Notes: generated by a model from the letters alone, not told the origin. Positions 4,989 through 43,008 are shown, counted from the first letter of the stretch. The stretch is DNA of 64,000 nt from Candidatus Scalinduaceae bacterium (GCA_046759445.1 JBHICG010000002.1:52763-116762); one strand, 5' to 3'. Program-made: numbers and translations.

Positions 4989-5479
4989 ATTCGAATCTCC
5001 AAAGGTAAGATAATGAATCTTTTCTGGATTTCCTTAACAGGCAATTTTCTCCACCATAGTTTTCCTTGGTACTCGTAAATATAACAATTCTTTGAAAGTT
5101 CCATTCCTGAAAGACAATAGTTCCATACAACTATTGAGATGTAGCCAATATGAAAACTCACTGGATGCCTTTCATCACCTGTTGAATGTTCTACCTGGTT
5201 TGGGTGACTATGAACTTGCGCTAGTAAGGTTAAACTATGCCTTGAAAGCTTAGTTACAAGTCTTATCAAATCGTTTTGCTCGAGAGAAACTCCCTCTCCC
5301 CACTCAGAACCCCCAACAAACATAGTGGTTATAATAGAAGATTCTTGTGCTCTTTTACCAGCCCAAAGTACAAGACCTTCTTTACCGATTTCCCCCTTTA
5401 GTTTTAAATACGCTTCTGTGCCAGATATTATCTTATGAGAGATATAGAATTTATTAGCTATGGCGGTAACTAACTTCAT
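4985..5479 (-). CDS. JAB/MPN+ metallopeptidase (deubiquitinase-like), BilC-like
   Basis: EGLVLWAG...QVHSHP...STGD JAMM motif; overlaps both neighbours (ATGA). Confidence 0.88.
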   Translation of the reverse strand: MKLVTAIANKFYISHKIISGTEAYLKLKGEIGKEGLVLWAGKRAQESSIITTMFVGGSEWGEGVSLEQNDLIRLVTKLSRHSLTLLAQVHSHPNQVEHSTGDERHPVSFHIGYISIVVWNYCLSGMELSKNCYIYEYQGKLWWRKLPVKEIQKRFIILPLEIRI

Positions 5480-5904
5480 TGATAAGCTTTGTCCATTTCA
5501 ACTTGAATATCTTCTAATACCTTAGATAATAAATATTTCTTTACATTCCAAGTATAGTTAGTATGTAGAATCTCATGAAACTCTCTAATGCCTGGAATAC
5601 ACAACTGTGGTGGATTACGCCCCAGCGCAGCCTGAAAGGCTGATCCTAGTTTTGGCCAGAATTGCTTCCCTTCTTGCCTAGTCTGTGGATCAACAAAAGT
5701 AAAAGCAGGAGCTCTTTGTGGGTATCCCTCGTAATATAAGCGTGCCATAAATTTTAAGGTTGGACTCTTTTTAGGATACATAAGTACATATACATATAAC
5801 CCCTCTGGTGTTACCTTCCATCCGTGATAAATAAACAGGTTATTATGCGCTTGGAGACAATCTAATTGTTCTTGAATTTTGTGACTAATAACTTCACTTT
5901 CCAT
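5476..5904 (-). CDS. E2-like protein of the CEHH metal-binding type, BilB-like
   Basis: YPQRAPAFTFVDP (UBC-like YPxxPP core) and LCIPGIREFHEILH, matching the CxxxxxE(Y/F)H..H signature. Confidence 0.8.
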   Translation of the reverse strand: MESEVISHKIQEQLDCLQAHNNLFIYHGWKVTPEGLYVYVLMYPKKSPTLKFMARLYYEGYPQRAPAFTFVDPQTRQEGKQFWPKLGSAFQAALGRNPPQLCIPGIREFHEILHTNYTWNVKKYLLSKVLEDIQVEMDKAYQ

Positions 5905-6158
5905 TAGATCACCACTGCACCAAGAGGGGTTAGAATAAGCGTAGCACCGTTTGGCACATTTGATTCGCCGATAGTATCATCCTCAGACAGGGGATTACCA
6001 TTGAATATTAAACGATAGTTGTCCGCTTGTGACGGATCGATCCCCAACTTAGCCATAGTAGATACTTTCAAAGCTCGAATAGGTTGGTTCGTATTTACCT
6101 CAACTTCTAAAGGCTGTTCTGTTGCCGCAGATTCAATTGTTAGTATAAGTTTTTCCAT
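5904..6158 (-). CDS. single-domain ubiquitin-like (beta-grasp) protein, DUF2604/BilA-like
   Basis: YRLIFNGNPLSEDDTIGESNVPNGATLILT resembles ubiquitin [35 protein letters not shown] RBS upstream. Confidence 0.88.
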   Translation of the reverse strand: MEKLILTIESAATEQPLEVEVNTNQPIRALKVSTMAKLGIDPSQADNYRLIFNGNPLSEDDTIGESNVPNGATLILTPLGAVVI

Positions 6159-6236
6159 TGCATTTCCTCCTATTTAACTTAAATTAAAAATTTTTAATTT
6201 TTCATTAATCACGAGATAGAACTTGAAAATATAGTA

Positions 6237-6334
6237 GTTAATAAATATTTAACCATAGCTTAACGTACCTGTCAAGGGAAAAATTTACTAATAGTTAATT
6301 ATTTATTGACCTATCTTTCACAACTCGTTATACT
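6237..6334. promoter_or_regulatory. divergent promoter region with two 17-bp imperfect palindromes (candidate XRE operators)
   Basis: GTTAA-N7-TTAAC at 6237-6253 and GTTAA-N7-TTGAC at 6294-6310; plus-strand TTGACC(6306)-N17-TATACT(6329); minus-strand TTGACA at 6275-6270. Confidence 0.6.
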
Positions 6335-6362
6335 TTATGCAATTAAGGAGACCTAATAAATA

Positions 6363-6710
6363 ATGGAAGACCAACTTGCCAAACGAATTGGACATCGCAT
6401 AAAGAGCAAAAGAATTGAACGCAATATAAATCAAAACAAATTGGCTGAGAAGGTAGGTATAAGTCCCGCAGCAATAAACCAGTTTGAGAAAGGAGAAAAG
6501 AAACCATCGTCCGATGTACTCACTAGGATCGCAAAAGAATTAAGTGTCTCCACTGACAGTCTTCTTACTGAAAAGGGGGATGAAATTTTCGTAGATGAAG
6601 AGGTTAAAATAGCTTTTAGAGCATTCAAAAAGTTGGAAAAAGGGGATAGAGACATAATCGTAAAGAATATACAATTTCTTAAAGAACAAGCGAAAAGAAA
6701 AGGAAAATGA
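6363..6710 (+). CDS. XRE-family HTH transcriptional regulator (CapH-like)
   Basis: RIKSKRIERNINQNKLAEKVGISPAAINQFEKGEKKPS HTH_3 pattern; AAGGAG RBS. Confidence 0.9.
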   Translation: MEDQLAKRIGHRIKSKRIERNINQNKLAEKVGISPAAINQFEKGEKKPSSDVLTRIAKELSVSTDSLLTEKGDEIFVDEEVKIAFRAFKKLEKGDRDIIVKNIQFLKEQAKRKGK

Positions 6711-7486
6711 ACATAGCAAAACTTTACGCAAAAGATCTTCTCATAGAATTTGAGAACTTATCTTTACCTATAAATCCAAAGAAAATTGCTGAGGCTAAAG
6801 GGATTATAATTAAAGAAGATGATCTAGAAGGCTTTAGTGGTATGTTGCTTAAGGTAGGCAAAAGAACTCTTATTAGCGTTAAAAGAAGCATAAGAGAAAG
6901 AGGGAAAAAGAGATTCACACTAGCCCATGAACTAGGGCATTATCTTTTGACTAAACACTTAACACCTTCAGATATCTCATTTGAATGTACTGATGAAGAC
7001 ATACATCATTTCGGAGAAAAAGATAATAAAGAGTCAGACGTGAATGCATTTGCAGCAGAGTTACTTATGCCAGAAGAATTTTTCAGAGAAAGAATTAGGT
7101 TAAGCGATCTTACTTATGAACTGATAGATAGTCTTACAAAAGATTTTGATACCACACTTACGGCTACTGGTAGAAGATTTGTGGAACTTAGTTCTTCATA
7201 TGCATTAGTTTGTTCTCAAAATTCTAAAATAAAGTGGTTCCTTAAGGGAGAAGATTTTCCTTATTATTTGTACTCTTCAGGTACCGTAAGCGAATCTTCG
7301 GTTGCCATAGATTTTTACTAGAGAAAAAAATTACCTACTTGTTTTGAATTGGTACCTGCAAACGCTTGGATTGATGACAACAGAATAGAGGACATGGAAA
7401 TCTTGGAAATGGCTATACCACTTCCATACTATAATCAGGTTTTAAGTTTTTTAAGCATTGATAATTCCAATGAAGATAATGACTAG
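6707..7486 (+). pseudogene. ImmA/IrrE metallopeptidase (CapP-like) interrupted by an in-frame TAG at 7319-7321
   Basis: RFTLAHELGH, FEC and ESDVNAFAAELLMP; the same frame continues 54 codons past the TAG (RKKLPTCFELVPANAWIDD...YNQVLSFLSI...) to TAG at 7484-7486. Confidence 0.8.
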
Positions 7487-9568: not shown

Positions 9569-9770
9569 TAAGACAGAATCATCCTTTCAACTTTGGTTTT
9601 TGCTGTTTTAATAATTTTTTTTGCTTCTTCTTGTAACTTTTCTGCATTTTGCATTCATTCATTAACTTCATCTACGATTTTTTGCTGAATATTTAGAGAT
9701 GGGATTGGGATCTTGGTGGTATTCAATAATTCAACATTTACCCCTGACTGATTATTCCAATTTGTACATA
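9569..9770 (-). pseudogene. restriction-modification specificity (S) subunit C-terminal fragment
   Basis: NQSGVNVELLNTTKIPIPSLNIQQKIVDEVNE*MQNAEKLQEEAKK...; internal stop, no N-terminus; coordinates approximate. Confidence 0.55.
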
Positions 9771-10085
9771 TAGTAAAAAATATCTTATGTTTTTGATATA
9801 TATTTAGAATTATTGTTAAGTATTCTGGGCAAAATAGGGCCAATAAGAGAAAGGAAATAAATTACGTTTTTATTGCATAACATTTTACTTAAGCTAACTG
9901 TAAATTAGTCATACCTTTCAATATTTTATCTCCTTCCATTCTACATTTCTTTACTGCAGTTAGGGTTCATTCTTCCAGCAATGTTTTTGTCTAAAATAAT
10001 TTCTCTATCCAAGTTCTGTAAGTTCTTCAATTACTTTTAAGTCTGTATCTGTGGCTTCGTTAATATTTGGCATATTAATACACAC

Positions 10086-10271
10086 TCATCTTTTTTGTTG
10101 AGGCTTACTTTTCTATGATATCTTCTGTGGTTGTGAAAATAGCTCCAGCATCTTTCATTTCATTCAGTGCTTCTTCTACCCTCTTCGTTAACAGCCTTAA
10201 TCGCATCTGTAACCAGTGAAACTTTGTACCCACGTCTTAGCAGTTCAAGGATGGCCACCTTAACACAAAAT
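10086..10271 (-). pseudogene. nicotinamidase/isochorismatase C-terminal fragment, frameshifted
   Basis: FCVKVAILELLRRGYKVSLVTDAIKAV, then a shifted frame EEALNEMKDAGAIFTTTEDI; coordinates approximate. Confidence 0.55.
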
Positions 10272-10368
10272 TAATTAAGGAACCTAATTATATCCTTGCT
10301 GTCTTTTGTATGATAAATAATTATTACAATCGGTAAATTATTTTTCGCTTCCACCTGAATAACCCTTT

Positions 10369-10584
10369 TTAATAGTTCTTGTTGTGACATTTATCGAGAC
10401 GCTTCAAGAGCATTTTTTTGAATTCTTTTTCTGAAAGATTCGGAAATCTCTTACGTAATCCATGAATAAAAAGTTTATTTGCAAATTCGGACAACTCAAA
10501 TGCCTTAAGCAACCTCCTTTCAGGTGACATTTTACGAAGCACTTGAATGTATATCTTATGATTTGGACGTTCTTTAATATTCAT
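10369..10584 (-). CDS. small hypothetical protein, type often found upstream of nucleotidyltransferase genes
   Basis: YIQVLRKMSPERRLLKAFELSEF; overlaps a truncated MSQQELLKRVIQV start at 10390. Confidence 0.55.
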   Translation of the reverse strand: MNIKERPNHKIYIQVLRKMSPERRLLKAFELSEFANKLFIHGLRKRFPNLSEKEFKKMLLKRLDKCHNKNY

Positions 10585-10663
10585 ATTTGATAAAGTTCTT
10601 TTAAGGCTTCTTTTTCTCTTTCTTCACTAACAACTTTAACTGTTCCACAATATTTTATCACTT

Positions 10664-11044
10664 CTATAACTGTTTTTTTAACCATTTTAGAACCTCTTTG
10701 CCTTTTTCAAATATTACCTTTGTTTTCTCTTTATCATAGTCTTTTAGCATCTTCTGGAGGTCGTCTGGATAATATGGGAAGATTCTCATCTTATTCAGGG
10801 CAGAAATAGTATCAGAAAATTCTTCAGGAAGCTTTAAGTGAACTTTTTCAATGAGATACGGTAGATTGTTTGTGTTTAAGGGTATTGCGTTGAATTTCTT
10901 CTGATAAAGCCCTTTAAGGGCTTTTTCAATGGAAAGATGGCACAGAAATACGGCATAAAAATACCTTTCGGCCTTAAGCATATACTCGGCAGTATCCATA
11001 TCGTAATCAGCCTGACTCAGCCATTCTTCAGGTTTTTTTGCCAT
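10664..11044 (-). CDS. HEPN domain protein
   Basis: EEWLSQADYDMDTAEYM...AVFLCHLSIEKALKG; AGGAG RBS. Confidence 0.85.
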   Translation of the reverse strand: MAKKPEEWLSQADYDMDTAEYMLKAERYFYAVFLCHLSIEKALKGLYQKKFNAIPLNTNNLPYLIEKVHLKLPEEFSDTISALNKMRIFPYYPDDLQKMLKDYDKEKTKVIFEKGKEVLKWLKKQL

Positions 11045-18216: not shown

Positions 18217-19029
18217 TCAATTATTAGCATAAACATTATAGCCATTTTCATTAATTTTAACTCTCTTTATCTTCTCAGCCTTGCCTGTTTCCTTGTTTAC
18301 GGTTATTACTGCTCCTTCTATATGAAGATCCTTTTCGGCTATGTCATAACGAGCAGGCACTTGTGTGACAATAGACTTTAATACAGGGTCTATACGCCTG
18401 CCTAGAATTGATTCATGTGGACCTGTCATACCCAGGTCTGTGATATAGCCGGTTCCTTTGGGTAAAATCTTTTCATCTGCCGTTTGTACATGTGTATGTG
18501 TGCCAACAACTGCGCTTACCTTGCCGTCTAGATGCCATCCCATTGCTATTTTTTCAGAGGTTGCTTCAGCATGCATGTCAACGATTATTATTTTTGTCAG
18601 TTTTGAAAGTTCCTTTACTGCCGCATCTGCAGCCCTGAATGGGCAATCTACTGGTTTCATAAATACGCGCCCTAAAAGATTAATTATACCAATAGAGCAA
18701 CCCTCCTTTGTTTTAATAGCAACATATCCTCTACCGTGTGCTAAAGGAGAATAATTCGCTGGCCTGAGTAGCCTTTGTTCGGACTGTAGAGAATTGAAGA
18801 TTTCTTTTCTTTTCCAGACATGATCTCCCATTGTTATTACGTTTATGTCGTAAGAGAAGAGTTTGTTAGCAATATTAACGGTTATTCCCGAGCCACCTGC
18901 AGAGTTTTCTGCATTTGCTATGCAAAAACCGACATCTTGTTCTTTAATAAAATTTTGAAGTTTTTCCCCTAAAATCTTTCTTCCCGGTTGCCCTACGATA
19001 TCGCCAATTGCGAGGATATTTAATTGCAT
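18217..19029 (-). CDS. YmdB/TIGR00282 metallophosphoesterase
   Basis: IGDIVGQPG, NAENSAGG, MHAEATSEK, GTHTHVQTAD, YITDLGMTG; start placed at MQLNIL (19029) rather than 19113. Confidence 0.92.
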   Translation of the reverse strand: MQLNILAIGDIVGQPGRKILGEKLQNFIKEQDVGFCIANAENSAGGSGITVNIANKLFSYDINVITMGDHVWKRKEIFNSLQSEQRLLRPANYSPLAHGRGYVAIKTKEGCSIGIINLLGRVFMKPVDCPFRAADAAVKELSKLTKIIIVDMHAEATSEKIAMGWHLDGKVSAVVGTHTHVQTADEKILPKGTGYITDLGMTGPHESILGRRIDPVLKSIVTQVPARYDIAEKDLHIEGAVITVNKETGKAEKIKRVKINENGYNVYANN

Positions 19030-19362
19030 TTTAAAAAATTGAGTATGATTTGAAAAATCATATAATAGACAGCGTATTAATTTTTTTGTGGGGTTATTAT
19101 ATCCCCTGTACATTACCCTTTCAATGAAATCTTGAGCCTTCAGAGAGAAAATATAACTGTACTTACGTTCTATATTTCAATTCTCTTAATATTGCTATAC
19201 AAGCGATGGTACTAAAAAATATGTTATCATCATTGCAAACTGAAAACCAACAAATTCTGTTAACCCATGATTTCTTAACAATTTCTTGCTTGACACTTTT
19301 AATACAATATATTACATTGTATTCTCTTTGAATACACGTATTCGTAATGAAAAAGCAAATTA

Positions 19363-19608
19363 TTGGAGGTAATTATATTGAAAGTTTTAACTATACGTTT
19401 ACCAAAAGATATCGAAAACAAAATCAGGATCAAGGCTAAACTCAAACATCGATCAGTTTCAGAACAGATAAAAAAGTATATCAGTGAAGCAATGATTTGC
19501 GAAGAAAACCCGGATTTGCCACTAAGATTTATAAAAGAAACACTTGAAGCCAAAGCAGAAATTGAAGCGGGACTTGGGGTAGAATATAAGTTTGGCACAA
19601 TTAAATGA
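19363..19608 (+). CDS. ribbon-helix-helix antitoxin
   Basis: LTIRLPKDIENKIRIKAKLKHRSVSEQI...EENPDLP; overlaps the toxin start. Confidence 0.8.
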   Translation: MEVIILKVLTIRLPKDIENKIRIKAKLKHRSVSEQIKKYISEAMICEENPDLPLRFIKETLEAKAEIEAGLGVEYKFGTIK

Positions 19609-19883
19609 AGAGCATAATCGCTTCGAATCGTTTCTTAAAATTTAAGAAAAAATCACCTAAGAAATTACAACTGGAGATTGACAATGAGGTAAAGAAAATT
19701 ATCAATAATCCCAACATTGGTGAATTGAAAAAAGGAGACTTGAAAGCAATACACGTTCACAAGTTCAAGTTTAAAACACAACTTTATTTACTTTCATATG
19801 AAGTTAAAGGAAGCACGTTATTTTTGTATCTAATTGACACACACGAAAATTACTATAAGCAATTAAAGAGGTATCTGTCTTAG
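19605..19883 (+). CDS. RelE/ParE family toxin
   Basis: NPNIGELKKGDL..HVHKFK..LYLLSY..HENYYKQLKRYL. Confidence 0.88.
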   Translation: MKSIIASNRFLKFKKKSPKKLQLEIDNEVKKIINNPNIGELKKGDLKAIHVHKFKFKTQLYLLSYEVKGSTLFLYLIDTHENYYKQLKRYLS

Positions 19884-20035
19884 AATAACTCTTAAGCGTA
19901 TAATTTCTTCATACAATTCGATAAAAACTTTTTGAAATACGTAATCATACAATCAAACGGCAGCATTTGCGAGTTTGATTTTTAATAACTATAATCACAA
20001 ATCAAGGTTTGATAATATCCTCCCCCTTCAATAAA

Positions 20036-20105
20036 TAAAGAAAAATTATCTTTGCTTTTTTTCTATTAGGAGAGGTTTATCTCTTGACAACGGGGGCCTT
20101 ATAGG
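20036..20105. repeat. about 70-bp direct repeat, copy 1 (copy 2 at 23088-23155)
   Basis: TAAAGAAAA(A)TTATCTTT...TTCTATTAGGAGAGGTTTATCTCTTGACAACGGGGRCCTTATAGG; each copy ends 2 nt from the stop codon of a minus-strand gene. Confidence 0.85.
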
Positions 20106-20107
20106 GC

Positions 20108-20665
20108 TTAGGCAGAGTGTAAGTTAGCTTGATTATTCTCTCTAAATTCATCGGCCTCTTTGATGATCCTTTGCCACTCAGTTGGTCCCGTTCCAGAATA
20201 TAAGCCTTGGATTTCCCCGTATATTTCCCCAGAAATACAGACTAACAGAAATGAATCAGCCCTTGATATCGAGTCGGCTGGAACTTGGACTCTACCATTA
20301 TCTATTTCGATGTAGATGGAAGAATTGCGTATCTTGAAGAGATCGCCGTCTCTAAACCATTTGGCAAACCTTGATTCCTCTCTGCCATAGATACGCTTGA
20401 CTCGCGCATTCACTTCGAGTGTCATACCAACCGCATATATATACTTCTGCTCATGATTATAGAAACTTCTCTTATCAAGTTTGCCTGAAAGATCCTTATT
20501 GCCAAGTATGATTATCTTACCCACCTCTTCAATGAGAGTGATGGCAAAGAAAGAAGCAAGAGCAAAATCATTCTTCTCGTAGAAACGGCGAGCTAATAAC
20601 CAATACTTCTCTAGGTGATCTCGCGCCCCTTGCGGTAGAGAGATAGGCTTAGTATGGATATCCAT
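20108..20665 (-). CDS. AbiV-family (HEPN) abortive-infection-like protein
   Basis: ASFFAITLIEEVGK, NHEQK and RNSSIYIE pattern. Confidence 0.7.
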   Translation of the reverse strand: MDIHTKPISLPQGARDHLEKYWLLARRFYEKNDFALASFFAITLIEEVGKIIILGNKDLSGKLDKRSFYNHEQKYIYAVGMTLEVNARVKRIYGREESRFAKWFRDGDLFKIRNSSIYIEIDNGRVQVPADSISRADSFLLVCISGEIYGEIQGLYSGTGPTEWQRIIKEADEFRENNQANLHSA

Positions 20666-20843
20666 TAAAGCTCAATCCTTGCTTTGTGAAAGCCATTCAT
20701 TACTTATTGGACACTCTGCCTAACACCATGCATAACCTAGTGGGATACTAACCTTGTATTATTGAATAAGTTTGAATGCATTTATAAGCTTGAACCTAGA
20801 AAAAGCCCTACATTCCCGTTCAGGTTCATGCGATAGATAGATA

Positions 20844-21731
20844 TTAATTTTCAACCTCACTACGAAATAAAAACCTTTCTTTTTCAAATAGAATTTTTGA
20901 AATAATAATATCCAAAATAAGGAACATTCTCTTTTCAAGTTTTTTGCTGGGTCCATAGTTAGCAGGAGCAAAATAATTAATTCTTTTGGCTTTGACTAAT
21001 TTTTTGCAAACATTTAATGATTTTGGGCTATTTGGCTTATATACAGCAATGGCAAATCCACTGTTCATCTTTACTACTGTCATCGATGGTACATCAGTGA
21101 GACCATCTCCAATATAAATCATATTAGAAAAAGGGATTGCTCTTTCGCTTTCAGGCATATATTCATTAATTGATTTCGTAACATCTTCTATTCCTTTATT
21201 TATTCGAAATAAAAATTGAGTTTTTGATGTATCATTAATCACTATTGTTGGAAATTTTGCCACATGATGATGATCAAAGAAATATTCAGAGGCATACATT
21301 CTTTCGAAATTTTTTTTAATATCTATTCCCTCTAATATTTCCTTTAAACCTGACGAAATAATGTAATGTTTTATTTTTACTTTATCATTTGACTTCTCTT
21401 TAACATAATCATTAATCCGATCAAACCATGTCTTAACACCAGGATAATAATTAATATTTTTAGCAAGACTTTGAAGTTTGTTTTTATCGAGATGAGTTCT
21501 TTTTTCTTCAATTTTTTCAATGAGTAACCGCATATAAGTAAGCATACCATCCGCTTTTGTTTTTTTTGTTTCTTTTTTGACTTCTTCCCAAAACTTCTTT
21601 GAACTGAGCTGTAACTCGGGAAGCATAGTATATTCTTGCATTGGTAGAGGAGTTAGGGTTCCATCAAAATCATAAACCACTGCGATTACATTTTGGCCAA
21701 AAGATCTTCTGGTTTTTTTACTTTTTTTCAT
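20844..21731 (-). CDS. HAD-superfamily hydrolase
   Basis: YDFDGTLT, IISSG, KTQFLFRINKG, YIGDGLTDVP. Confidence 0.9.
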   Translation of the reverse strand: MKKSKKTRRSFGQNVIAVVYDFDGTLTPLPMQEYTMLPELQLSSKKFWEEVKKETKKTKADGMLTYMRLLIEKIEEKRTHLDKNKLQSLAKNINYYPGVKTWFDRINDYVKEKSNDKVKIKHYIISSGLKEILEGIDIKKNFERMYASEYFFDHHHVAKFPTIVINDTSKTQFLFRINKGIEDVTKSINEYMPESERAIPFSNMIYIGDGLTDVPSMTVVKMNSGFAIAVYKPNSPKSLNVCKKLVKAKRINYFAPANYGPSKKLEKRMFLILDIIISKILFEKERFLFRSEVEN

Positions 21732-21751
21732 AAGGGTTATTTACTTTTTTG

Positions 21752-21866
21752 TTTCTAATGGCAGAATTGAACGGCAACCGCAGGCGACACGGAGAAAGTG
21801 AACGCAAGCGCTCGCATATTAATGTCGGCAAGGCGGCAGCCCCGCTTGCAATGCATTTGTCAATAT
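21752..21866 (-). mobile_element. degenerate integron attC-like site
   Basis: Minus strand TATTGAC-AAATGC-ATTG[C]AA[G]CGG...CCGTTCAAT-TCTGCC-ATTAGAA; L boxes pair with two extra bases; GC-rich internal stem. Confidence 0.55.
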
Positions 21867-22062
21867 GAAATAATTCTTATTTCATTTCTGTGCAACCAAT
21901 AAGAGACTCGGCCCCTTAGTCCGTGACTTTGGCCCTTTAATTGGGATATGTTGTACCCGAACCTTCATTATTCAACAATTAATTGTTTTTTTAATACTTC
22001 AATCTCTTTCTGGAATTTCTTATCTCTTTTTATCCAGGTTTCTAATCTCTTTAGAGCTTCAC

Positions 22063-22986
22063 TTACCGTTGACCCTTTATTCCCATCCCAATTTCTATAT
22101 TCTTCATATCGTTTTTTATTTTGACGAGCTCAATTAAAAGCTCAATTTTTTTTTCCCATAGTTCTTCTCTTTCTTTCTCAAGTGCCCCAATTTTTTGTAT
22201 GCTATATTGATTGTAGGTATCTAATAATGATGTAGTATCCTTACTTTTTTTAGTAGCTGAAATAGGTTGAATATAAAATTTCAAAAAATCCTTTCTTACA
22301 GTAATACGTTTTTCACTATGCAAAAAGACTCTCAGTTCACGAAGAACAGTTTCTCCACTGTTTAAACCAACAGCGCCGAAACTTTCTGTTTCCACAGTAT
22401 CAACCCAAGGTACTTTCCTTCCTTCCTCTAAGATACGAAAGGATATATTTAAACTATATATAGGAAATTCATTGTTATTCGTAATTTCTATGGGAACAGT
22501 AATCCAATGATTAGATTCCAACTGTGGAGTAATAAAAGTTAATGCCACACTTTTGGCAGTTTTTGCTAAATCTCTTTCAATATAATAATTTGCTAAAACA
22601 GAATCTATCTTTTTAAAACGGTCGTTTAGTGTTGTATATTCACTATTTATTTGATTATATTTTATAAGAAGATCAGCTTTTTCTAATAACGCCGAGAAAG
22701 AAATACCGTCGATTAATGCCAGATATTCAGGTGGGCGTATTGTTTCGTTGAAAAAAGAAGGGTAGCGTGACAAAAAGTGGTCATATTTCTGTTCAAGTAT
22801 ATGAATGATTTGCTCCTGTTGATCAGGAGATGCTTTATTAAGCAAACTAGCAAGGCTTTTTTGGTATGCTTCTTGTGATGAACCATCAATTTCTTCGTAG
22901 GAACCACCACACGAAATCAGTAATGTAGTACACAACAGAGCCGTTAAAACAATTATGAAATTTTTCATAATTAATGTAGACATCAA
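22063..22986 (-). CDS. hypothetical lipoprotein
   Basis: MKNFIIVLTALLCTTLLISC lipobox-like signal; 307 aa. Confidence 0.65.
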   Translation of the reverse strand: MMSTLIMKNFIIVLTALLCTTLLISCGGSYEEIDGSSQEAYQKSLASLLNKASPDQQEQIIHILEQKYDHFLSRYPSFFNETIRPPEYLALIDGISFSALLEKADLLIKYNQINSEYTTLNDRFKKIDSVLANYYIERDLAKTAKSVALTFITPQLESNHWITVPIEITNNNEFPIYSLNISFRILEEGRKVPWVDTVETESFGAVGLNSGETVLRELRVFLHSEKRITVRKDFLKFYIQPISATKKSKDTTSLLDTYNQYSIQKIGALEKEREELWEKKIELLIELVKIKNDMKNIEIGMGIKGQR

Positions 22987-23157
22987 GTCGTGGTTTATAG
23001 TAGTAAACTATCTGCCTTTGTCAATCGAGAACAACCTGAATTTGGGGAGTATTTTATCCGACATTTTTTGGTAGATCTATAAATTATTAAAGAAAATTAT
23101 CTTTACTTTTTTCTATTAGGAGAGGTTTATCTCTTGACAACGGGGACCTTATAGGTG

Positions 23158-23844
23158 TTATGTGCGATATTTATCTAAGAATCTCTGAATTTCATTTTCT
23201 ATTTCTTTGAAAAAAGCTTGGAGAATTTCTATATATGCAGAAATAAATTCGCTCCTAAAAATTACAATATCGCCAGGGTTGCCTGACAAAGATTCTTGCG
23301 CCTTTACAAACTTATTGATTTTGTCGCTTTCATTCTCTGGCAAAACACTGCCATTATGAACAACGCAGTTTCTCAATCTGTTAGTGTTTTTAATGAAAGA
23401 TAGCTCCTTATTAATTCTATCAAATTTGAATTCTGGTATTTTTTTCAAGAATAATAGAGCTCGTTCGATACCACTACCTTTTAAGTCACGAATGCAAATA
23501 TTGCTTTTTAGTTCATCTCCTATCTGACTGCATAATAGGTTTAAATGATGTTCTAGAAAATTATATAGCGTTATAAACATTGACCCTCGATGCATAGAAG
23601 GAAACATAAATTGGTTTTTGTGTAAATCGTATGTATAGCTTTCAATAAACCGATCATGATTATTTTCAGGTATTTCTTTTAGTTTTTCTGTGATATGGGC
23701 CTGTAATTTCTCATCATTTTTTTCAAATAATTTTTCAACCTCAGTATAAAACTGCCTGTAATCGTGAAGATCATTAACAATAGAATGTGGATATGTGACC
23801 AACTCGAAACTAAAAGGAATATTGTTACTTTCTTGTTTGTGCAT
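23158..23844 (-). CDS. HEPN-like hypothetical protein
   Basis: RNCVVH Rx4H motif in a helical protein; LYNFLEHHL. Confidence 0.6.
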   Translation of the reverse strand: MHKQESNNIPFSFELVTYPHSIVNDLHDYRQFYTEVEKLFEKNDEKLQAHITEKLKEIPENNHDRFIESYTYDLHKNQFMFPSMHRGSMFITLYNFLEHHLNLLCSQIGDELKSNICIRDLKGSGIERALLFLKKIPEFKFDRINKELSFIKNTNRLRNCVVHNGSVLPENESDKINKFVKAQESLSGNPGDIVIFRSEFISAYIEILQAFFKEIENEIQRFLDKYRT

Positions 23845-24107
23845 TTTATTTTTTCCTGCACATAATTTACTTTTATATAGAGAATATAGATAGTATAAAA
23901 GAATATAGCAAAAGTAGCAAAAGAATATAGGTGACCTTATTAGATGAAATGTTATATTGCAAGACCTGAACCCATTCTTGCGCTGGCCCCGTTTCTTACC
24001 CTGTTTCTCCCTGTTGGTTTCCCGACACCTCGAGAAAATCTACACCAACCCTATTTTTTCCCTTTATTGTCAGCAACAAAGTGAGCAATAACTTACTGCA
24101 CATGCTC

Positions 24108-24443
24108 TTATTTCGTGACAATGAGCGCAATGAACACCCCCGTGAGTGCCAAATAGAGGCCTTTGATAGCAACACCAAAAAGAATTAGCTCAAATCCTGA
24201 CCAGATCATAAGTGCTACACCAGCAGCAGTCAGCACCACGGTAATTGTAGCAATCCCAATCAACTCTTTCGCGTTGTAATTATTTTTGTGCCTCGTCCGC
24301 AAAGAACCAATGAAACCTGCCGGACCAATGAAACATAACGCGCACGCCACGAGCGCGGCGGTACCACTTACAAGTGAGCTTTTAAACATTACTTGAATGC
24401 AAGTGATCACGGTGATAAGGAAATAAAAATAAGCGAGCCACAT
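24108..24443 (-). CDS. hypothetical membrane protein
   Basis: About four hydrophobic segments in 111 aa. Confidence 0.55.
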   Translation of the reverse strand: MWLAYFYFLITVITCIQVMFKSSLVSGTAALVACALCFIGPAGFIGSLRTRHKNNYNAKELIGIATITVVLTAAGVALMIWSGFELILFGVAIKGLYLALTGVFIALIVTK

Positions 24444-24733
24444 TGGAGAATATAGGTCCAGAGAAAGTTAAATAAGAAATCTAAGATTTATATTTAAGCG
24501 AAAAGTGTAACTAATTTGTAAGTAAATCAAATTTTCATAAAGCAATTCGATTAATCAATTGATTGAGGAATCATCTAGTAGGAAAAGTCTGTTTACTCCG
24601 TGGAACCAACTATTCCACTGGGGTTTTGTTCTTGACATCTATCTCAATAGGTGACCCCGTTCCGCTCTTGTAACGCACAGAGGGGATCTTTTGCGAACAC
24701 CCAGGGCCATGATTGCGGGGCCGCTGAAACGCT

Positions 24734-25015
24734 TTAGAAGTCGCGAGGGTCCGGGTTCAAAATTTCTTCATCACCTTCAATGGGATATTCAGCATCGTTC
24801 AATTCTTTACAGTCAACATGATCACCCAATGACCAAGGACTAATAGCTGTAGGTTGCGCTATTGATTTTTTTTCAACTGCGATGGAGAATTCTAATGTCG
24901 CTTTTCTCCGAGCTTTCTTTTCATCTTCTGCTCGCACTATTACATTACCTTTATATATACTTGCATCCCAATGTTGAGAATTTAAATTTTTCGCTTCTAA
25001 ATAGAATATTTTCAT
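24734..25015 (-). CDS. hypothetical protein
   Basis: 93 aa; VIVRAEDEKKAR motif; cassette-like flanks. Confidence 0.6.
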   Translation of the reverse strand: MKIFYLEAKNLNSQHWDASIYKGNVIVRAEDEKKARRKATLEFSIAVEKKSIAQPTAISPWSLGDHVDCKELNDAEYPIEGDEEILNPDPRDF

Positions 25016-25360
25016 TGTCGATTTCTTTCTTCTAACATTTACTTTTATATTTATTTTATATTTCTCAGCGTGTTATCGTAGTACGTGTTGGATATCAAGC
25101 TCAAACCGATAGAATTGTACTGGGACATAAATATAGACAGCGACTGTTTTACCTAAACCAGTTAACCGTCATTGTACTAACTCAATAATTCGGTAATAAA
25201 TTTTAGTCTTATATGCTCTTTTATAATAGTGTTATAGTAAAAAAAAGTTACCTATTTACTGAGCATATACAGCTGTACCTATTTATTCACCTAGCAAACT
25301 CAGTCTCTCTTGAAAAATCTTGAGCAATTATTTCTGTACTAGTTAAAGCTAATTCACTCA

Positions 25361-26143
25361 TTACTGAAATAACCTCTCATATTCTAAACGTTCTTCAGGG
25401 GTAAGTGACCTTTGCTGAAGTATTTTTATAAGTTTCTTTGCTGTTTTTTGTTTTTCTTCTGTTATTTCCTCAAAATTTGGGATGGGTATGGCCTCTACCA
25501 ATTCGCCAGTTGATATAAAGCTTGGGGGAATTACAACTTTATTTACTTCGTAGCCACTAGTAGAACCATATAGTTCATACGTTCTGGATCTATTTAATTC
25601 GTCTATTTTTGCGACAACGAAATAATCTGGCTCGCTAAAATAGCGAAATGAACGGAACATAAAACCTTCTCGTTTTGCTCCCAGAAATTGTTTAACGTTA
25701 TCTTCAGAAGCAGTTAGCCGAAAGCGTATAGTTGTTTTATTTACATATGGGCACAAAAATTCAACGACAATATCGTTTTCAGTCTTTTCTATATCTTCGA
25801 GATATCCTTTGAACAAGATGGGGTTCTTAGAATGGGCTTCCATGAATTTTTGGATTTCATAAGTGAAAGATGAAACACCCAAATTTTGCGGCAGGAAATA
25901 AACTGCGCTGTACTTACTTTTCAATTCATCAATCTTGAGTCTTTCTTCCTTTTGAGATTTTTGTACTCGTTCTTTCCTTTCAGCTTCTTCTTGCGACCTC
26001 CTTTCTTCGTAGGATGGGCCACACCCAGAGCTAAGAAGCAATAGACTCAAGATGATCGTATAGGCCAAATGAGTTGTGGATGTCGATTTTTTAGGTTGAG
26101 GATCGCATCTTTGATATTTGATATTCACATTGAGGACTTGCAT
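25361..26143 (-). CDS. hypothetical lipoprotein
   Basis: LSLLLLSSGC lipobox; true start may lie downstream of 26143. Confidence 0.6.
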   Translation of the reverse strand: MQVLNVNIKYQRCDPQPKKSTSTTHLAYTIILSLLLLSSGCGPSYEERRSQEEAERKERVQKSQKEERLKIDELKSKYSAVYFLPQNLGVSSFTYEIQKFMEAHSKNPILFKGYLEDIEKTENDIVVEFLCPYVNKTTIRFRLTASEDNVKQFLGAKREGFMFRSFRYFSEPDYFVVAKIDELNRSRTYELYGSTSGYEVNKVVIPPSFISTGELVEAIPIPNFEEITEEKQKTAKKLIKILQQRSLTPEERLEYERLFQ

Positions 26144-26512
26144 TATTCACAATCCTATGAAACAAGTATTATGATTTGAGAACGACTATTTTTGGCAAGA
26201 AAGCTCATGTTTCTACACTCGTGTAGACATAAACCTGAATTATGTTAACTAATCCACATCATAAGACGCGGCAAAGTTTTTATGCTGGTGAATAAGGTGA
26301 TATTAAATATACTTATTATTGAAGTCAAGTATAAAAAGAGAGGTGGATTCAGGGCCTGTTTCGTATTCTTTTCTGGATTGTCTTGCTCAGGAGAATTAAG
26401 TTTAAAAGGCTGAAGCCTTAACTCCTAATAGTATTGTAACGAAGGCCGATTTGTAATTTAAAATTGCAAAATTAAAAATCCCATCATCCTGTCTAAAAAA
26501 CCCATAATGTTG

Positions 26513-26537
26513 GTGGAAGCCTAAAGGCTTCCGCTAC
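26513..26537. repeat. GTAG-type REP-like palindrome
   Basis: GGAAGCCT-AA-AGGCTTCC-GCTAC; related elements at 57881-57939, 58628-58650 and 58712-58764. Confidence 0.65.
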
Positions 26538-26573
26538 ATATTTTACCTGTGTTTCGTGACCTGCCCGATTATT

Positions 26574-28262
26574 TCATTTGGGTGAGTTGAAAGGTTCTAA
26601 TTTAAAAAGTTCTCGCAGCATTGATTCAGGATAGATACAAAAAAGATATTCTCTATTTGTAACAATTGAATTGTACATTAACTTCTTCTCTATTTGCTCT
26701 ATTTCTGTTTCTTTCTCATCAATTAAGGGTTTGATCTTTTCCTTCATCAATGCATTAAGTTGTTTAAGTCTGTTAAAAATCCAACGTCTTTCTTTACTAT
26801 CATGTGTTTCCCTGGCTATAAGGTCTTTTTTTTCACTTATCATAGACCTCATGCCTACGTCTTCCATAGTTTCCCTTGGGGCGTATCTTTCAGGATTGTA
26901 ATTCATATCATTAATATCTTGCTTGAGGACTCTAATATCTTTGCCAGAAGCATTATAAGGTTTATATGGCAGATGTAGAGTTGCCGTAATCGTTGCATGC
27001 CCGGGAGGCTCCACGCCAAAAAAAGCCCTTATGATTTCATCAGTTACCAAATCATATTTTGCGCCCCCAACCCCATGAATAAACAGGTCAGAAAAAAACA
27101 TCCTTGAATACATGGTTGTAATTATGGCCTTTGGCCGTATCTTCATACCAGCGTTTATCAAAATCTTTATTTTCCTTAAATTTTCCGACGAATTTACCTT
27201 TCCGTAGAAATCAAGATCAGCAACAACTATATTTTCGGATACTAAGCTTACGTGTTTATCACTTGTCACGGAAGCAAACAGTCTTTCCCTTGGTTCATTT
27301 TTCTTCCATATCCAAAATGGTAATTCAATCATGTCTTCTTTTACCATCAAATCAGGTAATGGATTAGCCTTTGAACTAATCTTTTTTAATTTACGATACT
27401 CTCCAAGTTTTGCGTTATAAATTCGCACAAAATTCCTTATATCCCCTACTATGTGCAGAAAGAAATTTAAAAAAGACTCTGTCTCAGATATAAGAGAGAC
27501 AGGTATCTCCAGATTGCTAATGCTAAATCTCTGTAAGTATGAGTGAATTGAATAGGTAAACAAATCACCAAGACTTTTCGTTTCCTTGCTAAGTGCTATT
27601 ACCATATCTATAAAATCTTTGAATGTCTTCTTCATGTCAGGATTAGATATGATTCGAAGCACATTTTTTTTAAAGGCCGTCAATTGTGTTGCATCTGTAT
27701 ATCTGACTTCTTCAAAAGCAAGATTATATAACCTTGAGACAAATTCTATCTTTTCCATTGAAGAACTTAATCCGTTTATTTTTGGAATGTTCAAATAATT
27801 GTCATGGCAGCCGTCATTATCAACTACCATATTTATGCCGATGCCATTTACGCTTTTTGAAATACTATTTACGAGTTTATTCTTTACCATTATACCTGGG
27901 TGTGCGAGGATTGGTGGGTGTCCGGTTTGTATTATGGTTTTGTCTGGAGTGTAAGAATTATGAATAGATGGCAGGTCTTTTTTAGATATTATCTTTAATT
28001 TTGAACAGGTGAACCATAATTTCTCAGAATATTCCCTTGCCTTTTTTAGTATCTCGGTTCTGGCCTGTTTGCGAAACTTAGAAAAGGGGATACCGTTAAT
28101 ATTAAAATTGTAAGATTGAAATCTCTCCTTATTTAGTTCGATTAATCCGGGAATGTCTTTATAAATGGGCTTGATGAATATCTCTTTGTCTTTTTTTGGA
28201 ATCACAAATGTTTCAATTTTCATAGACATTAGCTTCTCAGCCTGCCTGTGCGAAGCACGCAA
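26574..28262 (-). CDS. conserved hypothetical protein, remotely BshC-like
   Basis: QTGHPP, VVDND, ELPFW, RPKA, DLFIHGVGGAKYD; likely start at MSMKI (28229). Confidence 0.55.
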   Translation of the reverse strand: MRASHRQAEKLMSMKIETFVIPKKDKEIFIKPIYKDIPGLIELNKERFQSYNFNINGIPFSKFRKQARTEILKKAREYSEKLWFTCSKLKIISKKDLPSIHNSYTPDKTIIQTGHPPILAHPGIMVKNKLVNSISKSVNGIGINMVVDNDGCHDNYLNIPKINGLSSSMEKIEFVSRLYNLAFEEVRYTDATQLTAFKKNVLRIISNPDMKKTFKDFIDMVIALSKETKSLGDLFTYSIHSYLQRFSISNLEIPVSLISETESFLNFFLHIVGDIRNFVRIYNAKLGEYRKLKKISSKANPLPDLMVKEDMIELPFWIWKKNEPRERLFASVTSDKHVSLVSENIVVADLDFYGKVNSSENLRKIKILINAGMKIRPKAIITTMYSRMFFSDLFIHGVGGAKYDLVTDEIIRAFFGVEPPGHATITATLHLPYKPYNASGKDIRVLKQDINDMNYNPERYAPRETMEDVGMRSMISEKKDLIARETHDSKERRWIFNRLKQLNALMKEKIKPLIDEKETEIEQIEKKLMYNSIVTNREYLFCIYPESMLRELFKLEPFNSPK

Positions 28263-28303: not shown

Positions 28304-28382
28304 TTCCCCTCTAGAAAGAGGGGATTAAGGGGTGTGTAGATATACCTTTAACACACCCCCAGCCCCTCTTTTTAGAGGGGAA
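28304..28382. repeat. palindromic MITE-like element
   Basis: TTCCCCTCT...AGAGGGG...GGGGTGTGT...ACACACCCC...AGAGGGGAA. Confidence 0.7.
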
Positions 28383-28486: not shown

Positions 28487-31117
28487 TTATTTTTCCAATT
28501 TCTCTTTTAAATTATGAAGTTTGTTGAGGGCATCAATTGGTGTGATTTTTGAGGTGTCAAGATTCTTTAACTCTTGAATCACTTTATTCTCAGGCGTATT
28601 AAAGAGAGGAAGTTGCATTGGTTTAGTTACCTCTTCTTTTTTATTAATAGTCGCAAATTTGGGTTTGCCGTTAATGTCCAGAGTTTCTGCCTCAAGATTG
28701 GCAAGTATTACCTTTGCCCTTCCAATGACCTCATTAGGCATACCAGCCAATCTGGCGACATGGATACCATAGCTTTTATCTGTACCGCCCTCAATAATCT
28801 TTCTTAAGAAGATTATTTCATCTTCCCATTCCCTCACTGCAATGTTAAAGTTTTTGATACCCGGGAAAAGTAAGGCCAATTCGGCAAGTTCGTGGTAGTG
28901 AGTAGCAAACAACGTTCTTGCCTTAAGATGCTCATATATGTATTCTGTTAATGCCCACGCAATACTCACGCCATCAAAGGTACTGGTACCACGACCAACT
29001 TCATCAAGTATTATCAAGCTCTGTTTTGTAGCATTGTTCAGGATATTTGCGGCCTCATTCATCTCCACCATAAATGTACTCTGACCTTTTGCTAATTCAT
29101 CCATTGCCCCCACCCTCGTAAATATACGGTCAACAACACCTATGGTTGCCTCTTTTGCAGGAATAAAACTACCCATCTGTGCCATGAGGACAAGCAAAGC
29201 TACCTGGCGAATGTACGTACTTTTACCTGCCATGTTAGGCCCCGTAATAACCATGATTTGATTATTTACTCCATCGATATCAGTATCATTAGGTATAAAC
29301 TTCTCGCCTATCAGGGTCTTTTCCAGTACAGGATGCCTCCCATCAATAATTCTGAGGCAGTGACCATCTTTAACTACGGGTCTTGAATATCCGCTATCAA
29401 CGGCAATACACGCAAGCGCTGCAATACAATCTAAATGGGCAATAACATCTGCTATCTTTTGAATGCGTTCAGTATATGTGCTTATGTCCTCTCGAATCTC
29501 TTGAAAGATATCATACTCTAATTCCTTTGCCCTTTCATCAGCAGTAAGAACCTTTGCCTCATATTCCTTGAGTTCGGGGGTAATATATCTTTCTGCATTC
29601 TTAAGAGTTTGTTTGCGAATATACGTATCAGGTATATTATTTTTGTGAACATTTGTGATTTCAATATAATATCCAAAAACCTTGTTGTAACCAGCCTTTA
29701 ATGAATTTATGCCTGTCCGTTCAATCTCTTTTGCCTGAAAGTTTGCTATCCAGGTCTTCCCATTCCTACTGGTATTTCGTAACTCATCCAAATTGTGATC
29801 ATAACCTTCTTGTATAATGCCACCTTCACGAACAGAATGAGGTGGTTCGGGAACTATGGCAGTGCTTATAAGCACCCTGACTTCCTCTAATATATCCAGC
29901 GCTTCATAAAGTGATTTAAGAATAGGCGAATTGCAGACAGAAATCATCTTTTTTAATTTTGGTAATACAGAAATCGATTGCTTTAGTGAAATAAGGTCTC
30001 TTGCGTTTGCTCGACCAAAGCTGATTTTCGTAGAGATCCTTTCAATATCATAAACGTCCTTCAAATGTTCCCTGATTTCCTTGCACAGGTTTTTATTATC
30101 ATATAATTCCTCAACCCCATCCTGTCTAAATCTTATATCCTCTGACGTACAAAGCGGACTTATCAACCAGCCTTTTATTAGACGTCCTCCCATGGGAGTT
30201 TTAGTCTTATCAATTATACCAAGCAGGGAACCTTCCTTTTGATGCGTTCTTATCGTCTTAACCAGTTCTAAACTTTGTTGTGTTGAATGATCTAACATCA
30301 GACGATTTCGACTTGAGAATTTTTCAATTCTATGGATATGTTTAAGTGATGTTTTTTGTGTTTCGTTCAGGTAATTCATTAATGCACCTGCTGCGTTTAT
30401 GGATGGGCCGGAATCTTCACAACCAAATCCCTCCAGCGAAGAAGTGCCAAAATGACTAATGAGCCTGCTATATGCCGTCTCTCGCGTAAATTCCCAATCC
30501 GCACGATATGTTATCATCGTGCTAAAATCTCCAGACAATCTTTTCGGAAGGTCAAACTCTTTAAAAGTAAAATTTTCTGGCAGAATACACTCAGATGGAT
30601 TTATCCTCGTTAATTCATCCATTAAACGAACCTCACTAATGTCCTGTATCATGAATTTACCGGTAGAAATATCAACCCACGATAAACCAATACTATCGTC
30701 ATTTAAAAACATGGATAAAAGATAATTGTTGTCCTTATCATTCAGCATTGCATCTTCAGTAAGTGTGCCAGGTGTTATGATCCTTATAACATCTCGTTCA
30801 ACTATTTCCCCTGTCTCCATTTTTGAGCTGGATTTTCTTAAGCTATCTTGTATCTGCTCACATACAGCAACCTTATATCCAGCCTTAATCAACTTTTGGA
30901 TATAAGACTCGGCTGCGTGATGAGGTATACCGGCCATAGGTACAGCCTTTTCTCCTTTAGACCTTGAGGTCAAAGCAATACCAAGAATTTTCGTTGCAAT
31001 CTTGGCATCATCATAGAACATCTCATAAAAGTCACCCATACGGAAAAACAATAATGCATCCTCATGTTTCCTCTTTATGCTCATATATTGTTTCATCATG
31101 GGGGTTGAAAAAGTCAT
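28487..31117 (-). CDS. mutS: DNA mismatch repair protein MutS
   Basis: TPMMKQY, FFRMGDFYEMF, TGPNMAGKST, STFMVEM, LDEVGRGTST, FATHYHEL, SYGIHVARLAG. Confidence 0.98.
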   Translation of the reverse strand: MTFSTPMMKQYMSIKRKHEDALLFFRMGDFYEMFYDDAKIATKILGIALTSRSKGEKAVPMAGIPHHAAESYIQKLIKAGYKVAVCEQIQDSLRKSSSKMETGEIVERDVIRIITPGTLTEDAMLNDKDNNYLLSMFLNDDSIGLSWVDISTGKFMIQDISEVRLMDELTRINPSECILPENFTFKEFDLPKRLSGDFSTMITYRADWEFTRETAYSRLISHFGTSSLEGFGCEDSGPSINAAGALMNYLNETQKTSLKHIHRIEKFSSRNRLMLDHSTQQSLELVKTIRTHQKEGSLLGIIDKTKTPMGGRLIKGWLISPLCTSEDIRFRQDGVEELYDNKNLCKEIREHLKDVYDIERISTKISFGRANARDLISLKQSISVLPKLKKMISVCNSPILKSLYEALDILEEVRVLISTAIVPEPPHSVREGGIIQEGYDHNLDELRNTSRNGKTWIANFQAKEIERTGINSLKAGYNKVFGYYIEITNVHKNNIPDTYIRKQTLKNAERYITPELKEYEAKVLTADERAKELEYDIFQEIREDISTYTERIQKIADVIAHLDCIAALACIAVDSGYSRPVVKDGHCLRIIDGRHPVLEKTLIGEKFIPNDTDIDGVNNQIMVITGPNMAGKSTYIRQVALLVLMAQMGSFIPAKEATIGVVDRIFTRVGAMDELAKGQSTFMVEMNEAANILNNATKQSLIILDEVGRGTSTFDGVSIAWALTEYIYEHLKARTLFATHYHELAELALLFPGIKNFNIAVREWEDEIIFLRKIIEGGTDKSYGIHVARLAGMPNEVIGRAKVILANLEAETLDINGKPKFATINKKEEVTKPMQLPLFNTPENKVIQELKNLDTSKITPIDALNKLHNLKEKLEK

Positions 31118-42626: not shown

Positions 42627-43008
42627 TAAAAAAAGATTATTGAGACGCCTCGGGAAATTAGACACCAAGAAGATTAATCAAATAAAATCAATTATAAAGG
42701 AAATGCTAGTTGATTAATTTTTGATCTGAAAATAGATTCCCGATCGGGGTCGGCGTGTGATTCAACTCGCCGAGTAGAATCACCTAAGCAATTCCGCTGT
42801 TGTGGAATTGCCAATGACCAATTTATAACGCTCTATGTTATACCCATAATTCAACTTATCCCGACAGAAGACGGGTCTGGAGCTGGATTCAGGGTCGTCC
42901 TCAGACGACTGTCATTCCCGAGGAACAGCTTACCTGGTTAGCAAACAGGGAATCTAGATTTTTATCCTTCGTGGTGCCCTGGAGGGGCATGAGAGTTTAA
43001 CAAGAAAT

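Follow-up and report, generated by a model that had tools for sequence, protein, structure and literature searches.

A CALIN is defined as a cluster of attC sites lacking integron integrases. Elements that have no integrase and are bordered by att-like direct repeats include remnants of the cis-mobilizable element (CIME) type. AbiV is reported among the commonest defence systems in chromosomal integrons (bioRxiv 10.1101/2024.07.02.601686). In a second preprint an AbiV cassette, brcN, homologues outside integrons that are presented there without attC, and a pseudo-attC beside a defence system are described (bioRxiv 10.1101/2024.07.02.601719). A search for literature linking Scalindua and integrons gave nothing relevant by title or abstract. 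Here we describe a window of 64 kb of Candidatus Scalinduaceae bacterium, which is the whole stretch of DNA that was analysed and the ground covered by all within-window searches, and in it an island of small minus-strand genes at 19.9-26.5 kb. A sequence-only reading had taken these genes for a decayed, CALIN-like cassette array or for cassettes inserted at secondary sites, carrying candidate antiphage cargo. We lean, if only slightly, towards an ordinary variable region, that is, a small defence and toxin-antitoxin island of stand-alone genes and not an integron array or CALIN, because neither attC sites nor TAAC/GTTA core pairs nor an integrase were found.

The island shares several features with integron arrays and CALIN (Vibrio campbellii plasmid NZ_CP026319.1, used as control array, and brcN). 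It consists of small co-oriented genes of defence or unassigned function, a stop codon lies within a TAA-containing box that has its complement upstream of the gene's own start (four of eight genes in the window, four of seven in the real array), and a near-identical element follows two unrelated genes. Unlike those arrays, the window has no attC hairpin, no paired TAAC and GTTA, no L boxes, no covariance-model signal and, within its 64 kb, no integrase. The spans between boundaries measure 179-335 nucleotides (nt) against 126 nt in the control array, the shared element stands on two genes only, and three genes carry a promoter- or leader-like motif upstream. As in defence islands at chromosomal hotspots, AbiV, PDC-S34, a HEPN candidate and ParDE are placed between housekeeping genes and the content differs in a relative; the comparison is with one relative, and several island genes (two lipoprotein-like, one membrane-protein-like and a gene of 93 amino acids (aa)) carry no defence annotation. 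A Tragantia homologue with a pseudo-attC in Marinobacter, a small-island defence gene, is described with cassette-like features that IntegronFinder would not call (bioRxiv 10.1101/2024.07.02.601719). That case, as the preprint presents it, keeps an attC hairpin a few mutations from canonical, whereas the island has no such hairpin at all.

The cassette proposal was built on three minus-strand genes, each described as bounded by self-complementary ends that include the stop codon. The coordinates of all six arm strings were exact when checked against the window sequence, and each low-coordinate arm includes the TAA stop of a minus-strand open reading frame (ORF; Table 1). A fourth pair, previously missed, belongs to the 111-aa gene (8 nt, AAATAAGA/TCTTATTT); end-complementarity is absent from the HAD and 260-aa genes. 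Chance was assessed on a rough set of 68 ORFs by the longest perfect reverse complement that an arm which overlapped the stop had within the 80 nt before the start. With shuffled upstream sequence (6,800 trials), at least 7 nt were reached in 8.2%, at least 8 nt in 2.6% and at least 12 nt in none. Real upstream regions swapped between genes (4,556 pairs) gave 8.2% and 2.8%, with a maximum of 12 nt. The 7-8-nt pairs had been conceded as possible coincidences and, taken one by one, are indeed at chance level (8.2% for at least 7 nt), while the 13-nt pair, which had been judged unlikely to arise by chance, exceeds both nulls for this placement. Placement aside, inverted 13-mers within 1 kb of each other are no rarity: the window contains five distinct perfect pairs (eight seed positions), and 30 shuffles had 2.1 seed positions on average. 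The consensus boxes GTTRRRY and RYYYAAC were strictly matched by one of the six boxes only (GTTAGGC), and this part of the proposal was weakened; the criterion is itself too strict, real R'' boxes being loose. A second inverted match, 19995-20012 against 20672-20689, was borderline (16 of 18 positions, E 0.03) and not collinear with the 13-mer pair. It connects a conserved segment beyond AbiV with the AbiV leader just upstream of the start, and is interleaved with the 13-mer pair, not nested in it.

No attC was detectable downstream of any of these genes, so the idea of a CALIN-like decayed array was not upheld. The core pairs are TAAG and GTTA for AbiV, TAAC and ATTA for the 228-aa gene, TAAA and GTTA for the 93-aa gene, and TAAG and CTTA for the 111-aa gene; TAAC and GTTA occur together in none of the four, compared to all four signature-bearing Vibrio cassettes. 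The Vibrio array contains 11 VCR (Vibrio cholerae repeat)-type sites of 126 nt and one divergent site. These sites form the textbook hairpin (35 pairs, 10 with compensatory changes), and their R'' boxes follow RYYYAAC only loosely, the constant parts being TAAC (10 of 11 sites) and GTTA (11 of 11). A covariance model, R1, built from 11 VCR-type attCs (126 nt, one type), was run with filters off. It scored its training sites at 108-153 bits and one site outside training at 40.8. Over the window it gave 13 matches at E ≤10, the best of 14.2 bits (E 0.12) inside dxs and none downstream of the signature genes.

Further calibrated evidence is provided by an anchored-hairpin test, in which the 7-nt box at the stop codon was fixed, a closing partner was sought 45-160 nt downstream, and the energy of the enforced hairpin was compared with shuffles. 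For real attCs a partner was found in 12 of 12 cases, with the true length in 10 and p ≤0.03 in eight. The 228-aa and 111-aa genes had no closing partner, and the values for AbiV (-2.4 kcal/mol, p 0.49) and the 93-aa gene (-4.6 kcal/mol, p 0.57) were those of shuffles. Single-stranded DNA (ssDNA) folds of the downstream 145-150 nt and of the spans between boundaries (z -2.5 to +0.75) were likewise no better than shuffles. Rfam gave no match in the window, a null that holds for the families it contains, among which an attC family was not verified. Had cassettes been inserted at secondary sites, the whole attC would be expected to stay, and none is present. Decay fares no better: a 95%-identical repeat without a hairpin in either copy follows two genes, beside a perfectly kept 13-nt pair, and independent decay is excluded because both copies are equally unstructured.

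Some further scans were discarded. Home-made attC motif scans found none of 12 real attCs on calibration and were given no weight; their two island candidates were the parE terminator hairpin (19951-19985), which is also the only AAC...GTT candidate near AbiV in a relaxed scan, and a non-folding stretch. An unconstrained minimum-free-energy test with paired ends was uninformative (5-6 of 11 real attCs passed; seven in the island against 6.2 in shuffles), and an Enterobacter plasmid fetched as a short-attC control had no class 1 integron annotated. Two structured sites outside the signature genes were noticed. At 28304-28382, between the 562-aa gene and mutS, lies an inverted repeat with 32-nt arms (81% complementary) and two CCCCTC...GAGGGG hairpins; it is the second-best R1 match, at a non-significant 12.2 bits. 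The other site, at ~26432-26577, belongs to the conserved 562-aa gene, for which the anchored-hairpin test was positive (-14.1 kcal/mol, p 0.00); its stop box contains TGA and TAAC/GTTA is missing, and the span holds a strong terminator-like hairpin at 26511-26536.

The absence of an integrase, already remarked upon in the sequence-only reading, was confirmed for the window: none was found in 69 ORFs and 78 leftover stop-to-stop frames, and these 147 frames contain no tyrosine- or serine-recombinase domain. The search for tRNA or tmRNA fragments as att sites returned 0 genes. Of enzymes that rearrange DNA, the window encodes only one, an IS200-like Y1 transposase (62376-63362), which is part of a separate system similar to repetitive extragenic palindromes (REP). 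This transposase, which carries helix-turn-helix (HTH) domains, is bracketed by inverted 26-nt GTAG-hairpin elements (62323-63415), with more copies at 44413-44438 and 45241-45266, and is followed by a run of TTGACCCCTTT-like units (~63356-63415). The system looks like a REP with its REP-associated tyrosine transposase (REP/RAYT, or REPtron). A family of 131-nt repeats (63-95% identity), in which the GTAG hairpin element forms the end, was seen at 42555-42685, 44310-44440 and 45138-45268, and further repeats of 50-105 nt at 50135/51140 and 47105/52389.

The gene content of the island bears out the suggestion of candidate antiphage cargo, with profile matches for AbiV and PDC-S34 and an adjacent ParDE pair. 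The AbiV gene is a family member by profile (PF18728, 58.5 bits, cut-off 27.1, profile positions 11-154 of 155; TIGR04498, 81.1 bits, cut-off 27; PADLOC, 1.3e-20), with a candidate role in abortive infection, and has 49 homologues of at most 71% identity in several phyla. The HAD gene matched three PDC-S34 models (2.7e-102, 1.2e-81 and 1.8e-77) and is a candidate defence gene on this basis. The 228-aa protein has 10 homologues of at most 65% identity; R158, N159 and H163, found without exception in 11 of 11 sequences, correspond to the Rx4-6H HEPN motif, and the predicted structure is all-alpha (predicted local distance difference test, pLDDT, 85.9). Pfam gave no match even at E 10, hhalign against AbiV a probability of 0.2%, and neither a PDB sequence search nor Foldseek anything significant. 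Its nearest Atlas cluster, which may be the protein's own, is auto-named 'Apea-like HEPN' (0.97), and we treat the protein as a candidate Apea-like HEPN. No plasmid or phage match was obtained for the 93-aa protein. An Atlas lead naming it 'Integron gene cassette protein' (0.86, below the reliable range) was not confirmed, its 13 homologues being unnamed and DUF7296 giving no match.

Other defence-related genes lie elsewhere in the window. An operon at 3387-7321 encodes ThiF/E1-like, JAB-like, CEHH metal-binding and ubiquitin-like proteins and is followed by a divergent pair of HTH and M78-peptidase genes; it is a bacterial ubiquitin-like conjugation module, of a kind linked to phage defence. 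Toxin-antitoxin and defence pieces (9658-11044, 42559-43914, 49970-52370) comprise an hsdS fragment, a HEPN gene (10664-11044), a MazF fragment, an MqsA-like gene, HicA/HicB at 42958-43323 with the hicB start duplicated (90%) at 49970, a nucleotidyltransferase/HEPN pair at 50337-51034 and a SIR2-like gene at 51330-52370.

Relatives of the locus were collected by a MutS scan of GTDB species representatives, from which 80 of 602 confirmed candidate stretches were kept. Among these 80, the sole close relative is the Ca. Scalindua metagenome-assembled genome L001 (MutS 80%; others at most 62%). Both mutS and the 562-aa gene (60% aa identity) are common to the window and L001, and gene content differs beyond them; at the equivalent place L001 has a HicB-like antitoxin gene and an M54-like lipoprotein gene. 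At the far edge, window 20010-19974 is collinear with L001 14616-14651 (81% over 37 columns, E 7e-4). Because of this 37-nt segment, the comparison tentatively suggests that ~6.3 kb of the window are extra relative to L001; the remaining similarities of L001 to the island were short AT-rich matches and judged spurious. The island would then be hosted by a hotspot downstream of mutS and the conserved 562-aa gene in a Scalindua-like planctomycete.

The common orientation of the island genes is nothing special, since the flanking housekeeping genes share their strand: the minus strand carries every gene from ~10 to 31 kb, and the GC skew switches sign near 32-36 kb. At ~31000-37000 gene orientation turns from minus to plus, the skew changes sign and the cumulative skew has its minimum near 35 kb; this switch explains why the island is co-oriented with its neighbours, and could mark a replication origin or terminus. 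GC-rich patches at 21770-21850 and 24590-24733, within AT-rich intergenic regions of the island, are possible gene remnants or structured elements. The span from the 93-aa to the 111-aa gene folds with z -1.8 and -2.5.

Table 1. Features of the island, its flanks and its repeats; positions count from the first letter of the window
Feature	Position	Strand	Remarks
ymdB-like housekeeping gene	18217..19113	-	low-coordinate flank of the island; Pfam YmdB 2.9e-104
parD-like/parE toxin-antitoxin pair	19363-19608, 19605-19883	+	ParE-like 82.9 bits (cut-off 28); ParD-like 30.8 bits (cut-off 23)
Intrinsic terminator-like hairpin 3' of parE	19951..19985	+	ATCAAAC...GTTTGAT, then TTTTT; ssDNA fold z -3.3
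Segment shared with L001, tentative distal island junction	19974..20010	-	collinear with mutS
Repeat copy A	20036..20110	-	begins at AbiV stop codon; E 1e-21
AbiV-family gene, 185 aa, full length	20108..20665	-	PF18728, TIGR04498, PADLOC
13-nt arm TTAGGCAGAGTGT	20108..20120		minus strand encodes ...HSA-stop
AbiV partner arm ACACTCTGCCTAAC	20711..20724		46-59 nt upstream of AbiV start; GTTAGGC on gene strand
HAD-family gene, PADLOC candidate PDC-S34	20844..21731	-	PADLOC 2.7e-102; Pfam HAD 6.8e-8
Lipoprotein-like gene, no known family	22063..22986	-	likely start ATG at 22968; lipobox LISC
Repeat copy B	23087..23160	-	begins at stop codon of 228-aa gene; 3050 nt from copy A
228-aa gene, Apea-like HEPN candidate	23158..23844	-	all-alpha; invariant R-N-x3-H motif
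8-nt arm GCACATAA of 228-aa gene	23858-23865		abuts 14-mer ATTTACTTTTATAT at 23865-23878
111-aa membrane-protein-like gene, no family	24108..24443	-	8-nt end-complementarity
93-aa gene, unnamed family	24734..25015	-	13 homologues, 58-84% identity
Arm CTTCTAAC of 93-aa gene	25029-25036		followed by 14-mer ATTTACTTTTATAT at 25037-25050
260-aa lipoprotein-like gene, no family	25361..26143	-	without end-complementarity
562-aa gene, proximal edge of the variable part	26574..28262	-	60% aa identity to L001 12750-14384
mutS, high-coordinate housekeeping flank	28487..31117	-	five MutS domains

Several points weigh against an island of stand-alone genes. Pairs of at least 7 nt were found in four of the eight island genes (13, 8, 8 and 7 nt) compared to six of 60 other genes, and this clustering has a binomial tail of 0.0024, a nominal and post hoc value. 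The stop/upstream complementarities, enriched beyond chance, are left unaccounted for by a stand-alone origin and may be a trace of cassette ancestry. On the control array, end-complementarity was present in four of seven co-oriented cassettes (9-11 nt) compared to one of 25 non-array genes of the plasmid stretch, and it is on a real array a valid cassette indicator; in three non-integron plasmid relatives of the 228-aa gene (E. coli, Serratia and Lelliottia) it amounted to 5, 5 and 0 nt. A gene on the V. campbellii plasmid whose product is 35% identical to the 228-aa protein is a genuine cassette: it begins with G followed by TTAGGCTAAT, has its stop within GCCTAAC and is succeeded by a VCR-type attC of 126 nt. 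Both AbiV and Apea-like HEPN families occur as true cassettes. R1, which represents a single attC type of 126 nt, may overlook attCs that are short or divergent, and the evidence on attC and integrase covers 64 kb of the genome. At the level of sequence, moreover, a 72-nt element at the exact stops of two unrelated genes resembles the homogeneous attCs of a chromosomal integron, and the insertion footprint that we propose for this element below would draw on two copies in one genome, with no recombinase and no empty site.

As to homologues of the island genes in bona fide arrays, the picture was mixed. For the 228-aa family a true cassette was present in one of the four plasmid contexts examined (of 105 matching records), and was absent from those of E. 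coli, Serratia and Lelliottia. AbiV is reported as a cassette in the preprints cited above, and the window AbiV itself had no tblastn match in 72,556 plasmids. An annotation-based view, by which all plasmid relatives were non-array, proved wrong for the Vibrio plasmid, as its sequence demonstrated. This array (L083 18982-30783 of NZ_CP026319.1) contains at least 12 VCR-type attC sites, IntI is absent from the PLSDB gene table, and the plasmid is mobilizable; a group II intron maturase gene lies inside the array, and the Apea-like HEPN cassette is among its contents.

These points could be explained if the AbiV, 228-aa, 111-aa and 93-aa genes had entered as integron cassettes, kept the 5' boundary together with the R'' box, which shares sequence with the stop-codon region under selection, lost their attC hairpins by deletion, and are now fixed and non-mobile. 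We consider this unlikely. The frequency of the signature in the island against the 8.2% null, its contrast between real cassettes and non-array genes, and its absence from all three non-integron relatives of the 228-aa gene all speak for such an origin, yet no calibrated test found an attC remnant. Three of the four genes have arms that stop exactly at TAA and start with TTA, in the manner of a cassette junction, and three of four contain one of the two canonical halves, GTTA or TAAC, but none keeps both. A perfect 13-nt pair beside a vanished hairpin of 60-130 nt demands precise deletions, not decay, and two different genes are followed by one and the same non-folding 72-nt sequence. In the AbiV subfamily a C-terminal ...S-A-stop after a variable linker is found in eight of 14 aligned sequences, the one from the window included, and GCC TAA would encode it; this likeness is at the protein level, the DNA of the homologues not having been seen. 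The true Vibrio cassette related to the 228-aa gene and the AbiV cassettes that the two preprints report (bioRxiv 10.1101/2024.07.02.601719, 10.1101/2024.07.02.601686) favour the same origin, to which the Atlas lead for the 93-aa protein, below the reliable range and not confirmed, would also point; the missing plasmid match of the window AbiV speaks against it.

Absent from the sequence-only reading is a direct repeat of ~72 nt (94% identity over 54 nt ungapped, 95.3% over 64 columns, E 1e-21), the single structure of the island that departs strongly from randomness. Its two copies share an identical 39-nt core with slightly diverged edges and bracket a 3.05-kb block of the lipoprotein gene, PDC-S34 and AbiV. 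Both copies start at ancestral stop codons, because both genes end at C-termini natural for their families (...KYRT compared to ...KHRT, and ...LHSA compared to ...LGSA). Neither the window nor L001 contains a third copy (next nhmmer match E 1.2), and none of nine other intergenic segments of the island reached p ≤0.01 on either strand; a third copy seen by eye downstream of the 93-aa gene was at chance level (p 0.30). The 23-nt core is absent, as an exact match, from 185,579 GTDB species-representative genomes, and blastn of the repeat region against plasmids gave no match. Over 68-69 nt, the folding energy of the repeat is -2.2 to -4.3 kcal/mol (z -0.2 to -1.0), compared to -22.4 kcal/mol for a real attC.

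With modest confidence, we regard the repeat as the putative footprint of a recombination that would have inserted or duplicated the lipoprotein-PDC-S34-AbiV block at a shared sequence, and not as attC. A block between direct repeats that are 95% identical and share the same 39-nt core is similar to CIME-type remnants. In contrast to these, the window has no recombinase, no known target, tRNA included (0 tRNA genes), and no empty site that could be seen, and the repeat starts at a gene stop on both sides. As regards an att-flanked element, flanking repeats are present, a recombinase is not, and L001 lacks the entire island together with the repeat.

A shared motif was also observed upstream of island genes. 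Only two exact copies of the 14-mer ATTTACTTTTATAT exist in the window, and both adjoin an upstream arm, that of the 228-aa gene in one case and of the 93-aa gene in the other. Its core AAAAGTAAA occurs nine times compared to 3.3 expected, with five copies on the strand of the island genes. Of these five, three precede the start codons of the HAD, 228-aa and 93-aa genes by 9-31 nt, one falls within repeat copy B and one within the HAD coding sequence. The AAAAGTAAAT motif upstream of the three genes suggests that each has its own promoter or leader.

Since the repeat on the gene strand likewise combines TTGTCA-16 nt-TAATAG with the AAAAGTAAA motif seen upstream of other island genes, it could instead be a functional cis element tied to HEPN toxin genes, such as a promoter of the gene downstream, a 3'-untranslated-region or terminator module, or a small regulatory RNA, which was copied with or recruited to both genes. 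The identity of the 39-nt core in both copies and the position of the element at the natural stop codons of two HEPN-type genes are consistent with such a function. We nevertheless hold it to be quite improbable: the element has no significant RNA or DNA fold and no Rfam family, copy A faces the parE end with no downstream gene, the other two HEPN genes of the window are without it, and its core was not met in the species-representative genomes. Very improbable, finally, is the proposal that the 72-nt element and the gene-specific inverted ends are sites of an unrecognised, non-IntI and hairpin-independent recombinase shuffling small defence genes, for although two unrelated genes have a conserved element at their 3' ends, the island is enriched in inverted ends and its genes are small and co-oriented, there are two copies only, the 147 frames hold no recombinase domain except that of the Y1 transposase, the core is absent from GTDB species representatives, and the co-orientation is shared with all flanking housekeeping genes at 10-31 kb and tracks the GC-skew switch. 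Equally doubtful is what it would imply, namely a hairpin-independent non-IntI system exchanging defence genes in anammox planctomycetes or, in a milder form, a first view of cassettes that became domesticated within a defence island, a different element having taken the place of attC.

For the search for cassettes, these results indicate that stop/upstream complementarity is usable as a first-pass indicator, as the control array shows, and is insufficient alone; a screen of this kind needs to be followed by a search for an attC that folds, with real sites used for calibration. The 72-nt repeat is an oddity of the locus that is concrete and can be tested. Should the four signature genes be former cassettes after all, the locus would show what such genes look like after leaving an integron. 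As an island of stand-alone genes, it adds an example from the anammox lineage of small HEPN-type defence genes at a variable hotspot, and the occurrence of two of its families as integron cassettes elsewhere fits the traffic between defence islands and integrons that has been proposed in the 2024-25 preprints.

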